Positions 43,248 through 48,453 of a stretch of DNA of 64,000 nucleotides are shown in pieces. Position 1 is the first letter of the stretch. The number at the start of each line of letters is the position of its first letter. The stretch lies in assembly GCA_934130175.1 (NCBI GenBank), contig CAKOXP010000008.1, forward strand, positions 181 through 64,180, given 5' to 3'. The notes below the pieces were generated by a model that had not been told where the DNA came from, did not search any database, and was given only the letters and a program-made list of their open reading frames with translations. The position numbers and the translations under genes are program-made. This DNA is from an uncultured Bacilli bacterium (GTDB lineage Bacteria > Bacillota_I > Bacilli_A > RF39 > UBA660).

Positions 43248-44297
43248 CTACTTAACTAATTCTATACTTTCTAAATAATAATTATTATTATCTTTGTCAA
43301 AATCAAAAGTATATTTATATTGATTTAATTTAGCATAATCTTTTTCAATATCAAATGTTTCATATGTATAATCAGTCAATTGGTCAACACCCTTAGCATT
43401 AGTAATATCATAAGCCTTGTATATATTTCCCTCTGCTGTTATCTCAATAGCAACATTAATATATAATTTATTATTATCTTTCTCAACTTTAACTATTTTT
43501 CTTTTCATTGACATAGCTGAAGTTCCACCACAACCAGTTTTTTCTTTATATTGATAATATCCATTTGCATATTCATAATATTTGCAAGTTCCATAATCAA
43601 TAGTTTCTTCGTGTGCTTTAAATTTATCTTTTCCAAATAGTTCTGTTAAACTTTCATCTAACTGTTCTTTAGAAAAATAAAAGGGTGATCTTATATTAGC
43701 AACGCCTAATACTTGAATATAGTCAGCACTAAAGTTTGCAGGTGTTGTCTTATCTTTTGCATATAGAATTTCATAATTTGCAGCATCTTGAGATGAACTA
43801 ACTGAATTATCATATCTTTCGATTAATTTCTTTGCAAAAATACTTGTAGGTTCTATTTCTTCTATTTCATTATTTTTATCATTTTTTATTTCTTTATTAG
43901 ACTTCTTATTTGCCTCACTCTTATTAACTTCAGTACTATCAGTTTTATTAAAAATTTCAAAATAATAATAGCTACCACCAGCACCCAAAGCAAGACAAAT
44001 GATAATTATTAAAAATGTAGTGAATGGATTTCTTTTCTTATATTTCTTGTTTTTTTTCTTCTTTTTTGATTCTAGGAATTCTTCTTCGTCATCATTTTCT
44101 TCTTCTTTTTTTGTTAAATCAGGTTTATCAGCTTCTAGAACACTTGGCATATCCTTTGGCGGATCAATTTTAACCTCTGGGAAAGAAACTGTTTCTTCTA
44201 AAGATTCGACCTGATCATTATTTTCTGGATTAAATATTGCTGACTTCTGGCCTACCTCAGCAACAAATGTGTTACTCATTTCATCATCTTTGTTCAT
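43248..44297 (-). CDS. Bitopic membrane protein of unknown function (acidic cytoplasmic N-terminus, TM, extracytoplasmic domain)
   Basis: AAGGAG lies 9 nt before ATG 44297. A K-rich stop-transfer KKKKKNKKYKKRN is followed by the TM FTTFLIIIICLALGAGG. Confidence 0.5.
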   Translation of the reverse strand: MNKDDEMSNTFVAEVGQKSAIFNPENNDQVESLEETVSFPEVKIDPPKDMPSVLEADKPDLTKKEEENDDEEEFLESKKKKKNKKYKKRNPFTTFLIIIICLALGAGGSYYYFEIFNKTDSTEVNKSEANKKSNKEIKNDKNNEIEEIEPTSIFAKKLIERYDNSVSSSQDAANYEILYAKDKTTPANFSADYIQVLGVANIRSPFYFSKEQLDESLTELFGKDKFKAHEETIDYGTCKYYEYANGYYQYKEKTGCGGTSAMSMKRKIVKVEKDNNKLYINVAIEITAEGNIYKAYDITNAKGVDQLTDYTYETFDIEKDYAKLNQYKYTFDFDKDNNNYYLESIELVK

Positions 44298-44373
44298 ATA
44301 TAACAACTCCTTATCTTCTTAATATAACTACATTATATAATTAAAGAAGAAAAATAGCAAGAAAAAAAGAATT

Positions 44374-44916
44374 CTACTCACCTTTAGAATCCTCTTTATA
44401 ACTCAATATTTCAGAATACTTTTCTCTAATACTCTTTAATCTTTTCTTAGTAAGATATTCACTAGATAATTCCTCTTCTTTTGAAAAACAATTACTATAG
44501 TTTATTATCTTACCATCTTTAACAGCAACTAAAAGGGGAATTTCAAAATCAAAATTAGAAATATCTTCTTTTAGTTCCATTTTTAGTCTTTTATATTTAC
44601 CTTTTTCTTTATTCTTTAAAGTATCAAGGTTATAATAATTAATTTCTTTAATAGATAATTTTTTAGCTTCACTATTTATTAGTCCTACAGCTTCTACACT
44701 TCCTTCATCATCAGAATTAGCAAGTAAAATAAGTCCTGTTCCACTTTCTAAAATAGTAACTATATCTTTATAACTAGAATAAACAAATGGATTATTTTTA
44801 CTAACATTATATTCTTTAGCAAACTTTTCACTATCTGTTAATTCTTCTACTTTTTTAACAGAACAACCTGTTGTAAATATAATAAGTATTAGAAAAACTA
44901 CTACTAATTTTTTCAT
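44374..44916 (-). CDS. Lipoprotein of unknown function
   Basis: Lipobox IIFTTGC at residues 12-18. Confidence 0.55.
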   Translation of the reverse strand: MKKLVVVFLILIIFTTGCSVKKVEELTDSEKFAKEYNVSKNNPFVYSSYKDIVTILESGTGLILLANSDDEGSVEAVGLINSEAKKLSIKEINYYNLDTLKNKEKGKYKRLKMELKEDISNFDFEIPLLVAVKDGKIINYSNCFSKEEELSSEYLTKKRLKSIREKYSEILSYKEDSKGE

Positions 44917-44919
44917 TAA

Positions 44920-45792
44920 CTATCCTTTAATTTGGTTCATTACTTCTTCTGCAAAGTTTTCTTCTTTCTTTTCGATTCCTTCTCCTACTTCAAATCTAGT
45001 CATTGAAACAATCTTACCACCGTTATTTTTAACATAATCAAGAACTGTCATACCACTATCTTTAACAAATGGTTGTTCTTCTAAACAAATTTCTTTATAG
45101 AATTTATTTAATCTACCAGTAACCATTTTTTCAGCTATTTCAGCTGGTTTTCCTTCTTGCATAACTTGTTCTTTGATAACATGAGCTTCATGTTCAACCA
45201 TTTCAGCTGGAACTTCTTCTCTTGTTATAGCAGTTGGATTCATAGCAGCAGCATGCATTGCTACATCTTTAGCAACTTCTTCAGTAGTGTTTTCTAAAAC
45301 AACTAAACTACCAATTCTACCACCCATATGTTTATATGCTCCAAATACTTCATTATCGTTTTTAACTACTTTTTTAAAACGTCTAATGCTTATTTTTTCT
45401 CCGATTGTTGAAATAATGTTAATTAATTTATCATTAACAGTTGTTCCTTCATCATTATAGTTTAATAATGCATCAACATCATTGAAATCACTTTTTAAAA
45501 TAAGATCGGCTACATAATCAACGAATTTAGTAAATTCTTCATTTTTTGCAACGAAATCAGTTTCAGAGTTAACTTCTAAGATAACAGCTTCATTTCCTGA
45601 AGTTATAATTTGGCATACACCTTCAGCAGCTACTCTTCCTTCTTTTTTAGCAGCTTTAGAGATACCCTTTTCACGTAACCAGTCGATTGCTTTATCCATA
45701 TCTCCTTCGCATGCTTCTAAAGCTTTTTTACAATCAAGCATACCAGCTTGAGTTTTTTCTCTTAATTCTTTTACATCACTTGCTTTATACAT
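44920..45792 (-). CDS. tsf: Elongation factor Ts
   Basis: VKELREKTQAGMLDCKKAL N-terminal UBA-like domain; 290 aa. Confidence 0.95.
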   Translation of the reverse strand: MYKASDVKELREKTQAGMLDCKKALEACEGDMDKAIDWLREKGISKAAKKEGRVAAEGVCQIITSGNEAVILEVNSETDFVAKNEEFTKFVDYVADLILKSDFNDVDALLNYNDEGTTVNDKLINIISTIGEKISIRRFKKVVKNDNEVFGAYKHMGGRIGSLVVLENTTEEVAKDVAMHAAAMNPTAITREEVPAEMVEHEAHVIKEQVMQEGKPAEIAEKMVTGRLNKFYKEICLEEQPFVKDSGMTVLDYVKNNGGKIVSMTRFEVGEGIEKKEENFAEEVMNQIKG

Positions 45793-45838: not shown

Positions 45839-46810
45839 TTATTTATTTAATGCTTCTACTAATTCACTTTTCTTCATAGTAGAATAACCTTTAATTCCAG
45901 CTTCTTTTGCTTTTGCTTTTAAGTCAGCTAAAGTAAGACTAGATAAGTCAGTAGTTTCTTCTTTTGAAATTTCTTTAACTTCTTCTACTTCCTTCTTTTC
46001 TTCTTTAACAACTTTTTTTTCTTCTTTTACTTCTTTTTTGAATTCTTTCTTATCTTCTTTGAAAGATTTTTTTGAATTCTTTTTGAAATCTTTTGTTTTT
46101 TCATCTTCTGTTACGTAATCAATTACTTCATTACCATTAACTTCAGCGATAGCGTTAGTAAGTGCTCCTATGATTAATTTAACAGCACGAACTGCATCAT
46201 CGTTTCCTGGAATAACGTAATCAACAACATCTGGATCACAGTTAGTATCTACTATACCAAATACAGGGATTCCTAGAATATGAGCTTCTTTAATTGCGAT
46301 TTCTTCTTTACGAGGATCAACAATAACCATTGCTTGTGGAGCTTTTTTCATCTCACGGATTCCTCTTAAGTTTTTATTTAATTTTTCATATTCTTTTTTG
46401 ATATTAACTACTTCTTTTTTAGGTAATAAATCAAAAGTACCATCAGCTTCCATTTTTTCAATTTCATCTAATCTTTTAATTCTACTTCTTATTGTCTTGA
46501 AGTTAGTTAAAGTTCCACCTAACCATCTTTCATTCATGAAATACATGTTAGTTCTAACAGCAGCTTCTTCTACTGCTTCTTGAGCTTGTTTCTTAGTTCC
46601 AACAAATAAAACCTTTCCACCATCAGTAGCGATTTGTTTTAAAGCTTCATATGCTTCTTCTAATTTTTTAACTGTTTTAGCTAAATCGATAATATAAATA
46701 TCATCACGTGTTGTATAGATGTATTCCTTCATTTTTGGATTCCATCTTCTTTTTTGGTGTCCGAAATGTACACCAGCTTCTAATAAATAATTCATTGATA
46801 TTACTGTCAT
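45839..46810 (-). CDS. rpsB: 30S ribosomal protein S2 with an ~87-aa K/E-rich C-terminal extension ending in a Rho_N/SAP-like motif
   Basis: The canonical S2 core runs to about residue 236. It is followed by [24 protein letters not shown]... and then [32 protein letters not shown]. Confidence 0.93.
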
Positions 46811-46902
46811 TTTTTAATTTCTCCTTTTCGTTTCATCTTCTATTAGTTTCTAATACCTACAACCCTTAAGGCACGAAGTAGATAAATTCGCTAATATGTT
46901 TA

Positions 46903-47499
46903 TTATTTTAAAGCTTCTAATAATTCAGCTTTTTTCATTGTTGAAGCACCTTTAATATTTTGTTTTTTTGCTTCTTCTTTAAGTTCTGCAACTGTCATTT
47001 TTGAATAATCTGTTGCTTCTTTTTTAGTTTCTTTCTTTTCTTCTTTTTTTGCTTCTACTTTCTTAGTATCAGCTTTCTTAACTGTTTTTGTTCCTTCAAT
47101 AGTAACTTCTTTTAAAATTTCAGTTTTGTTTGCTTTTGCTTTTCCAGCTTTTCCATCACGAGCAACTTTTACTAATTCAGTAAATGCTTCTGGATTGCTG
47201 ATAGCGATTTCTGATAACATTTTACGGTTTACTTCAACACCAGCTTTAGTTAATCCTTCAATAAATCTTGAATAACTAATGTCATTTTGACGACATGCAG
47301 CATTGATTCTTGTAATCCATAACTTTCTGAAATCTCTCTTCTTTTGTTTTCTGTCTCTAAATGCATATTGACCTGAATGCATTAATTGTTCTTTAGCAGT
47401 TTTATATAATCTATGTTTACTACCAAAGTAACCTTTAGCTTGTTTTAATACTTTTTTATGACGAGCTTTTGTAACAGCTCCATTCTTTACTCTTGCCAT
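46903..47499 (-). CDS. rplT: 50S ribosomal protein L20 with an ~80-aa K/E-rich C-terminal extension ending in a Rho_N/SAP-like motif
   Basis: The canonical L20 core runs to about residue 116. The extension ends in [31 protein letters not shown]. Confidence 0.93.
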
Positions 47500-47525: not shown

Positions 47526-47714
47526 TTAAATAATATTTTTTAATCTGTTGTAATCTGCTTTAGATAAAGTAGATCCCTTTCTACAACTTCTATTGAAGTT
47601 TGTTGATTTAGAACCAGTATTATGTCTACTTCCTGGTTTTCCAATTTTAACAACTTTGTTTTTATTTGTTCTAAAAACTTTTGCACTACCTTTATGTGTT
47701 TTAATTTTTGGCAT
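47526..47714 (-). CDS. rpmI: 50S ribosomal protein L35
   Basis: MPKIKTHKGSAKVF...; 62 aa, between infC and rplT. Confidence 0.93.
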   Translation of the reverse strand: MPKIKTHKGSAKVFRTNKNKVVKIGKPGSRHNTGSKSTNFNRSCRKGSTLSKADYNRLKNII

Positions 47715-47729
47715 AATTATTTCCTCCTA

Positions 47730-48275
47730 CTATTTTTCTTTCTTTGGTAATAACATCATTGTCATAGTTCTACCGTCAAGCTTAGGCATTTCACCTACTT
47801 CAGCATAGTCCTCTACTTTTGAAGCAAAGCGTAATAAAACCTCTTTTCCTAATTCGGTATGAGCCATTTGTCTACCCTTAAATCTAATTGTTAATTTAAC
47901 TTTGTCACCCTTTTGTAAATACTTAGTAGCATTTCTAAGTTTAGTTTCAAAGTCTCCAATATCAATTACAGGTGATAGGCGAAATTCCTTTAACTCAGAC
48001 ATATTAGCCTTTTGTTTTTTTAATGCTTCCTTAGCTTTCTTTTGTTTTTCATAACGGAACTTATTATAATCCATTACTTTACAAACAGGCGGATTAGCAT
48101 TAGGACTAATAAGAACTAAATCCAAAGAAGCATAATTTGCTAAAGTCTTAGCATCTTCAATAGACTTTACTCCTACTTGTTCACCATTTGGCCCAATTAC
48201 TAAAACTTCTCGAGCTTTAATCTGATCATTGATCAGCATGTTATCTTTATTGTTTGCGATAACTAACACCTCCAT
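47730..48275 (-). CDS. infC: Translation initiation factor IF-3 (start codon uncertain)
   Basis: INDQIKAREVLVIGPNGEQ...; the track ATG (48273-48275) is embedded in the SD-like ATGGAGGTG. Confidence 0.9.
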   Translation of the reverse strand: MEVLVIANNKDNMLINDQIKAREVLVIGPNGEQVGVKSIEDAKTLANYASLDLVLISPNANPPVCKVMDYNKFRYEKQKKAKEALKKQKANMSELKEFRLSPVIDIGDFETKLRNATKYLQKGDKVKLTIRFKGRQMAHTELGKEVLLRFASKVEDYAEVGEMPKLDGRTMTMMLLPKKEK

Positions 48276-48415
48276 AAAATAAGAAAAGTGGATATAAATT
48301 TATACCCACTTAAAAACCTATAATTTTAATTATATTAATTGGCTTTTTACCTAGTACTATTCGCTACTCAGGTGGATATAAATCGCTTTCCTTTTTCTTG
48401 ACTGATATAATTATA
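48276..48415 (-). promoter_or_regulatory. infC-rpmI-rplT leader: consensus promoter plus terminator/antiterminator (L20-leader-type attenuator)
   Basis: Minus strand has TTGACT(48433..48438)-17-TATAAT(48410..48415). The terminator is GTGGGTATA-aattt-TATATCCAC followed by TTTTCTT (48281..48311). The 12-mer ATTTATATCCAC is repeated upstream (48372..48383) and can pair with the terminator 5' arm. Confidence 0.5.
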
Positions 48416-48453
48416 TGCTTAAAGCTATTAAAAGTCAACACTTTTTTCATATT

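Follow-up and report, generated by a model that had tools for sequence, protein, structure and literature searches.

The 64,000-nucleotide (nt) stretch of an uncultured Bacilli bacterium analysed here (the window, along which all coordinates are counted) is AT-rich, with a G+C content of 25–30%, and its list of open reading frames (ORFs) gives the genes infC, rpmI, rplT, rpsB and tsf in that order on the minus strand. Two of these genes encode ribosomal proteins, S2 and L20, with C-terminal extensions that end in the same small module. rpsB (45839..46810, minus strand) encodes a uS2 of 323 amino acids (aa) plus stop and rplT (46903..47499, minus strand) a bL20 of 198 aa plus stop, the two being separated by an intergenic spacer of 92 nt (46811..46902) on whose minus strand neither a terminator-like nor a strong promoter-like site was seen. 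These are exactly the lengths given in an original prediction made from the sequence alone, and both C-terminal motifs quoted there match the C-termini letter for letter; the coordinates attached to it, 45839–47145, take in all of rpsB and only the 3′ part of rplT. Both proteins score above the equivalog cut-offs of their families, S2 with 342.7 bits on TIGR01011 (cut-off 76.3; 334.5 bits on Pfam Ribosomal_S2) and L20 with 168.3 bits on TIGR01032 (cut-off 65.65; 163 bits on Pfam Ribosomal_L20).

Each protein falls into three parts, all on the minus strand. The canonical core of S2 (residues 1–232; 46115..46810), delimited by its match to solved uS2 chains and predicted by AlphaFold with a predicted local distance difference test (pLDDT) value mostly of 65–88, is followed by a Lys/Glu-rich linker (residues 233–287; 45950..46114) and by a terminal Rho_N-type helix-extended-helix module (residues 288–323; 45842..45949). 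In L20 the Lys/Glu/Thr-rich linker (residues 117–163; 47011..47151) begins beyond the end of the L20 family models and leads to a terminal Rho_N/SAP-type module (residues 164–198; 46906..47010). Core ends near residues 236 and 116, as had been proposed, are about right: Ribosomal_S2 spans residues 9–223 and Ribosomal_L20 residues 3–109, TIGR01032 covers 1–113 of L20, and the alignment of solved uS2 chains to the window S2 ends at about residue 230–239. Across a six-frame ORF scan of the whole 64-kb window only the S2 and L20 ORFs carried the module, and IF3, L35 and EF-Ts gave no match to it.

The near-superimposability claimed for the two tails is borne out by 22 identical residues of 35 and a pairwise BLASTP E value of 6e-13. 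Against the Pfam gathering scores for Rho_N (PF07498; 24.9 bits), SAP (PF02037; 23.9) and HeH/LEM (PF12949; 28.9), both full-length proteins exceeded the Rho_N threshold (S2 39.3 bits at residues 288–323, L20 31.8 bits at 166–197), as did the isolated tails (45.9 and 35.6 bits, respectively). For SAP, L20 scored 23.9 bits, exactly at the cut-off (residues 164–198), and S2 16.5 bits, below it, with 24.6 and 28.8 bits for the isolated tails, whilst HeH/LEM remained below threshold throughout (17.5 and 15.5 bits in the full proteins, 23.2 and 21.7 bits in the isolated tails). The proposed Rho_N (HeH/SAP-like) identity therefore holds for Rho_N, is borderline for SAP, and falls short for HeH by score. 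The tails do not belong to Rho proper: isolated, they reached 13.5–17.3 bits on Rho models with cut-offs of 315–509, and only Ribosomal_S2 or Ribosomal_L20 plus Rho_N were found in the two proteins, with no Rho OB domain or RecA-type ATPase.

Structural modelling pointed the same way. AlphaFold placed helices at residues 294–304 and 314–322 of S2, joined by an extended segment, with a pLDDT of about 82. A tail-only model built from 108 tails (pLDDT 85.9) had as its top Foldseek matches in the PDB the N-terminal domains of E. coli Rho (template modelling score 0.76–0.77, root mean square deviation 0.9–1.1 Å over 36 residues), followed by the SAP domain of FAN1 in DNA complexes, the Tho1 SAP domain and T4 endonuclease VII. 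By sequence the nearest solved chains were the Ku70 SAP domain, the best match, and M. tuberculosis Rho. Among all 108 tails the invariant positions were one Leu and a Lys-Lys pair directly before helix 2. On these scores and models, the terminal module of S2 and L20 is predicted to be a Rho_N-type helix-extended-helix domain of 35–36 aa. Canonical S2 and L20 were said to lack it, and a PDB search indeed found it on none of the solved ribosomal proteins, including S2, L20 and L21 chains.

The original prediction had named a frameshift or assembly artefact among the things that would undo it. Such an artefact was rejected, since the identical 323-aa S2 was called on 23 independently assembled contigs, mainly from human-gut metagenomes, and the module was present on S2 in all 80 species-level relatives; the 198-aa L20 was called just upstream of the identical S2 in seven of the eight places shown. 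The relatives are 80 loci from a scan of one genome per species and derive from metagenome-assembled genomes (MAGs) of uncultured gut ‘Bacilli’, ‘Tenericutes’ and ‘Mycoplasmatota’, including Acholeplasma sp. CAG:878, Clostridium sp. CAG:1193, Ca. Coprosoma and Ca. Fimihabitans. The S2 ORF ended in the module in 80/80 of these loci. rplT lay directly upstream of rpsB in 34 of them, and there L20 ended in the module in 27, or 28 if L061 is included, whose frame is broken only by a masked run of N. The six L20 proteins without the module (L005, L015, L016, L017, L023 and L077) have a basic K/A/T/E-rich tail instead; these tails are long and histone-like, for example ...AKKTTTKKTTKKEDK. Outside the locus sample, all 120 best S2 homologues combined PF00318 with PF07498, and nearly all the best L20 homologues combined PF00453 with PF07498 and/or SAP. 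The extensions are thus shared by relatives, and the S2 and L20 tails belong, as had been suggested, among lineage-specific ribosomal-protein extensions.

A tree of 81 S2 cores resolved two clades, one of 35 species (support 98) that includes the window and has rplT beside rpsB, and one of 46 species in which rplT is not beside rpsB. The S2 module occurred in both, and the species retaining it span about 24% core divergence. The L20 module was also present away from rpsB, as in L149, where infC, rpmI and a module-bearing rplT are followed by a thioredoxin-reductase-like gene. The two-part appendage on S2 and L20 is of old date and has been passed on vertically within a large clade of Bacillota/Mycoplasmatota-like bacteria, uncultured and from the gut.

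The linker and the module behave very differently. In a 47-sequence alignment of the S2 family, invariant columns made up 70% of the core, 0% of the linker (which also had 36 insert columns) and 42% of the module; the module is under constraint and the linker evolves freely. Across the 80 species the S2 linker was 34–97 aa long (median 55.5), with 26% K, 24% E and a mean net charge of about −0.5, whilst the L20 linkers of 27 relatives were 18–58 aa long (median 44) with a net charge of about +4. AlphaFold assigned no secondary structure to the S2 linker (residues 235–286) and a pLDDT of about 28. An ER/K single-alpha-helix spacer, considered as an explanation of the K/E composition, was rejected on the absence of a predicted helix, the same low pLDDT and the unconserved sequence. 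The linker is predicted to be disordered, keeping its composition whilst its sequence is free, and its length ranges over about 20–100 residues among the species. Seven of the inspected loci (L029, L030, L033–L036 and L039), part of the clade without rplT–rpsB adjacency, have a conserved island, …EDIMKKALETVKRKEDR…, within an otherwise free S2 linker, which may be a second short helical element.

Within the adjacency clade, from which all the following tail comparisons are drawn, the two tails of one genome resembled each other more than did tails of different genomes. Identity between S2 and L20 tails was 0.68 within versus 0.58 between genomes (0 of 10,000 permutations as high), and identical residues were encoded by identical codons at a frequency of 0.74 within versus 0.65 between genomes (0 of 20,000 permutations as high). 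A single ancient split into an S2-tail and an L20-tail lineage was rejected on the tail tree, which requires 10 host switches. One tail clade with 95% support mixes 15 L20 and eight S2 tails, all with a one-residue deletion (‘-VTGMKKAEII’ type), and in L003 (support 93) and L022 (support 91) the S2 and L20 tails of one genome are direct sisters, whilst those of L014 and L032 fall together in forks without resolved order. The deletion variant appears on S2 in two separate subclades of the S2-core tree, which implies at least two replacements of S2 tails by L20 tails, and L002 illustrates the opposite direction, its L20 bearing an S2-type tail. Similarity between the two 3′ ends extends 130–290 nt upstream of the stop codons, of which 108 nt belong to the module; the longest exact nucleotide run is 36 nt (L024), and the module of L014 is 96% identical between the genes. 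Taken together, these sequence patterns indicate that gene conversion has repeatedly copied tail sequence between the neighbouring rplT and rpsB in the adjacency subclade, and that the S2 and L20 heads are functionally interchangeable. This interchangeability and the mutual overwriting of the tails lend indirect weight to the common ligand that the original prediction had put forward as one possibility. A recent conversion in the window genome itself was looked for and not seen: nucleotide identity between its two genes was 70%, with a longest exact run of 9 nt, and its synonymous codon sharing was 0.55 versus a baseline of 0.58.

A similar module turned up in 4070 representative proteins in an exhaustive profile search. 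In the 148 highest-ranking matches, which were scanned, L20 and S2 were the only ribosomal families, and many short matches were gene-call fragments of these two. Five singletons, N-terminal fragments of TopA (P0304), FtsY (P0364), homoserine dehydrogenase (P0362), GpsA (P0297) and ScpA (P0328) joined to a K/E linker and tail, were not counted as hosts; such TopA/FtsY-type fusions are probably de Bruijn-graph assembly chimeras formed at K/E-coding low-complexity DNA, and chimeras of this kind call for caution with metagenome protein catalogues. A further six matches (P0341, P0345, P0347, P0368, P0378 and P0385) are mini-proteins of 54–93 aa whose N-terminus resembles that of a secreted protein or a lipoprotein (signal-peptide type; e.g. 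...LLGGCGK) and runs directly into the K/E linker and head. If real, they would place the head outside the cell; alternatively they could be gene-call or assembly artefacts.

The closest tails from metagenomes, in 80 loci, sat on S2 (65), L20 (23) and other hosts (8). The last group includes an HExxH-containing protein and a DUF6110 membrane protein (107 bits; L104:315–899, plus strand), in which a K/E linker of about 65 aa carries a head near-identical to that of the window S2, so that the leash-and-head cassette is found on a membrane anchor in a close relative. It also includes L21 (L109:1105–1611, plus strand, contig MAAC01018943.1), with 128.8 bits for PF00829 and 41.5 bits for Rho_N. L21 binds beside L20 on the 50S subunit. 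All 120 best homologues (P0391–P0510) had the same architecture, and the fusion is the rule in cultured marine Flavobacteriaceae such as Polaribacter and Tenacibaculum. The L21 of F. johnsoniae in a solved ribosome (PDB 7JIL) has a low-complexity extension only and lacks the module; the article describing that ribosome contains no discussion of an extension.

The genes around rplT and rpsB encode proteins free of the tail. Upstream lie infC (47730..48275, minus strand) and rpmI (47526..47714, minus strand) and downstream tsf, encoding EF-Ts (44920..45792, minus strand); each is an ORF of the window, and Pfam identified IF3_N/IF3_C, Ribosomal_L35p and EF_TS, respectively, on identical neighbours. 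Upstream of infC are a near-consensus promoter-like site (11/12; 48286..48311, minus strand) and a terminator-like hairpin (48410..48438, minus strand), which may represent the leader through which L20 usually controls the infC-rpmI-rplT operon. Downstream of tsf are a conserved 180-aa lipoprotein-like ORF (44374..44916, minus strand) that starts MKKLVVVFLILIIFTTGCS and whose positional counterpart in L171 gives a weak PedC-like match, and a 352-aa ORF (43248..44306, minus strand) with an acidic/basic low-complexity N-terminal part and one transmembrane segment. Both ORFs keep their position in independent contigs.

What the appendage might do is a separate question, and the anatomical and evolutionary statements above are much more secure than any functional reading. 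With moderate confidence we propose that it is a flexibly tethered, low-specificity nucleic-acid-binding head that prefers RNA. The Lys/Glu leash would carry the small head and display it from the solvent side of both subunits; the head would bind RNA, either the ribosomal RNA (rRNA) surface of the ribosome itself or messenger RNA (mRNA) and nascent transcripts near the S2/mRNA-exit region, and would thereby raise the local RNA concentration at the ribosome or stabilise it. DNA or one shared protein partner are possible alternative ligands. S2 sits by the mRNA exit and the S1 site, and the head on either protein is tethered within a few nanometres of rRNA, which together make RNA the most probable ligand. 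That the head is a low-specificity nucleic-acid binder is suggested by its family membership, by the conserved basic residues at the position that HeH/SAP domains use, and by a precedent from Arabidopsis: the last 40 aa of RHON1, which comprise its C-terminal Rho-N motif, shifted 16S, 23S and mRNA fragments in gel-shift assays (PMC3458557). Also in favour of the reading are the predicted fold, the predicted disorder of the linker, the breadth of species that retain the module, the exchange of tails between the genes and the independent recurrence of the module on L21.

Several points weigh against this reading, or against parts of what it is built on. The searched literature and the PDB held no experiments on ribosomal Rho_N tails. 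The Foldseek E values are weak (0.5–1), reflecting the tiny size of a domain of about 40 residues. The SAP fold is also met in the double-stranded DNA binders FAN1, Ku70 and Tho1, so that on grounds of fold DNA is as defensible a ligand. Genome-specific codon usage could explain part of the codon likeness seen within genomes. Finally, the S2-core tree requires at least four independent losses or replacements of the L20 module, with no S2 loss in the sample, which makes the L20 copy dispensable.

The ambiguity of the fold leads to the first of the alternatives, a DNA or nucleoid tether, in which the SAP-like module would bind the AT-rich chromosome; ribosomes, or subunits still being assembled, would so be held at the nucleoid, and coupling of translation to transcription would be favoured. 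The L20 tail lies at the SAP gathering score and both isolated tails lie above it, the best sequence match in the PDB is the DNA-binding SAP domain of Ku70, structural matches include FAN1 bound to DNA and T4 endonuclease VII, and the G+C content of the window is in keeping with such a target. Both tails nevertheless score higher on Rho_N than on SAP, the only isolated C-terminal Rho-N motif to have been tested, that of RHON1, binds RNA, and a head held so close to rRNA would meet RNA far more often than DNA; we consider a nucleoid tether unlikely.

A protein ligand is about equally improbable. Here S2 and L20 would offer docking sites for one shared partner, which could be part of RNA polymerase, an RNase, a factor acting in hibernation or assembly, or the heads themselves, much as the C-terminal domains of L7/L12 recruit GTPases or as RHON1 is reported to form a complex with RNase E (PMC3458557). 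Heads that are interchangeable and kept alike within genomes are what a common partner would be expected to produce, and the same linker and head on the DUF6110 membrane protein suggests a generic handle. Set against this, no candidate partner was found and none is conserved beside rpsB or rplT, the conserved positions are basic (the invariant Lys-Lys pair), as is typical of nucleic-acid contacts, and gene conversion alone can account for the similarity of the tails.

More doubtful still is a role confined to biogenesis, in which the basic leash and head would help S2 and L20 to find or chaperone rRNA during assembly and would do nothing on the mature ribosome. L20 joins the ribosome early in assembly and its extensions are important for building the 50S subunit, the RHON1 motif binds rRNA fragments, and relatives that lack the L20 head retain a long basic tail, all of which would fit; S2, however, is a late-binding protein, so that no assembly stage is common to both hosts, and the S2 linkers are on average uncharged. 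A near-neutral passenger without selected function, meaning a stable little domain that chance fixed on C-termini exposed to solvent and that conversion alone keeps similar, would accommodate the repeated losses from L20 and the fact that conversion can homogenise without selection, but is very improbable given that S2 retains the module in every one of the 80 species across the divergence sampled, that conservation separates module from adjacent linker so sharply, that the same module sits on L21 in another phylum, and that L20 keeps it also where the two genes are not adjacent.

Should the tethered nucleic-acid-binding head be borne out, its consequences would depend on the ligand. Few known proteins are conserved as strongly as those of the bacterial ribosome, on which folded accessory domains are, to our knowledge, rare; here one small head is held on long flexible leashes from both subunits throughout an abundant gut lineage. 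Binding of mRNA or nascent transcripts would make the head a built-in device for mRNA capture or coupling, similar in concept to S1; with DNA or other ribosomes as its ligand, it would hard-wire the localisation of translation. More speculatively, and in our view improbably, the cassette might be a common handle for organising ribosomes spatially in these small, genome-reduced, AT-rich gut bacteria. A single polymer, be it nascent RNA, the DNA of the nucleoid or rRNA of neighbouring ribosomes, would then anchor both subunits and perhaps the membrane as well, and the L21 head of Flavobacteriaceae would point to a favoured place of attachment on the 50S subunit. The strengths of the finding lie in its two-subunit symmetry, in the concerted evolution of the tails and in the cultivable L21 carriers. 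A neighbour that repeatedly overwrites the 3′ end of an essential gene offers a clean case of concerted evolution between non-homologous genes, and the culture of Polaribacter and Tenacibaculum makes the question tractable even though the gut lineage is uncultured.

The architecture is visible in databases but undescribed and unexplained in the literature searched, which, on Rho_N, SAP or extensions of ribosomal proteins, yielded nothing relevant beyond RHON1. NCBIfam NF011109 (PRK14537) is named ‘50S ribosomal protein L20/unknown domain fusion protein’, and the window L20 scores 172.7 bits on it, slightly short of its curated cut-off (187). Taken in isolation, the tails of S2, L20 and L21 all map to the C-terminal part of this model, the window tails at positions 189–225 (L20: 190–224), so that its ‘unknown domain’ is the S2/L20 module; the model names no domain or function, and there is no matching model for the S2 fusion. 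Two further models are labelled ‘sunset domain variant’, a term for which a literature search found no paper. On these the window proteins remained well below the cut-offs (L20 on NF051450, 145.6 versus 375; S2 on NF051451, 284.9 versus 710), their alignments ended before the C-terminal parts of the models, and the isolated tails gave no match. The existence of such models for both L20 and S2 implies that some other lineage also mounts one shared, different C-terminal domain on the same pair.

Extensions of uS2 past its conserved core are known elsewhere. The uS2 of Mycoplasma pneumoniae in PDB 7OOC has 294 aa, with extra C-terminal sequence that is not visible in the structure, and the eukaryotic uS2, RPSA, is described as having a disordered C-terminus (PMC4098866). 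Both, like the window S2, have C-terminal sequence past the core, which structures of these proteins do not resolve, and both differ from the window tails in having no folded Rho_N head and in not being common to both subunits. The Rho N-terminal bundle (PF07498; PDB 1A8V and 1PV4) shares family, fold and the basic motif before helix 2 with the module, at only about 19–20% identity to E. coli Rho; the window module, unlike that of Rho with its OB fold and ATPase, is C-terminal, solitary, on a predicted disordered leash and fused to ribosomal proteins. SAP domains (Ku70, FAN1 and Tho1; PF02037) are of the same clan and fold and are likewise small, often terminal, nucleic-acid-binding heads on flexible linkers, but they are eukaryotic DNA-binding modules, and the S2 tail within the full protein falls below the SAP cut-off. 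RHON1 of Arabidopsis chloroplasts is a plant RNase E partner and not a ribosomal protein, with no homology beyond the motif, yet there too a charged stretch leads into a Rho-N motif that sits C-terminally on an unrelated protein. The bL21–Rho_N fusion of Flavobacteriaceae, although set on another host protein in another phylum and behind a linker rich in Ala, Lys and Pro, resembles the window S2 and L20 in that a ribosomal protein ends in the same module, borne on a low-complexity linker.

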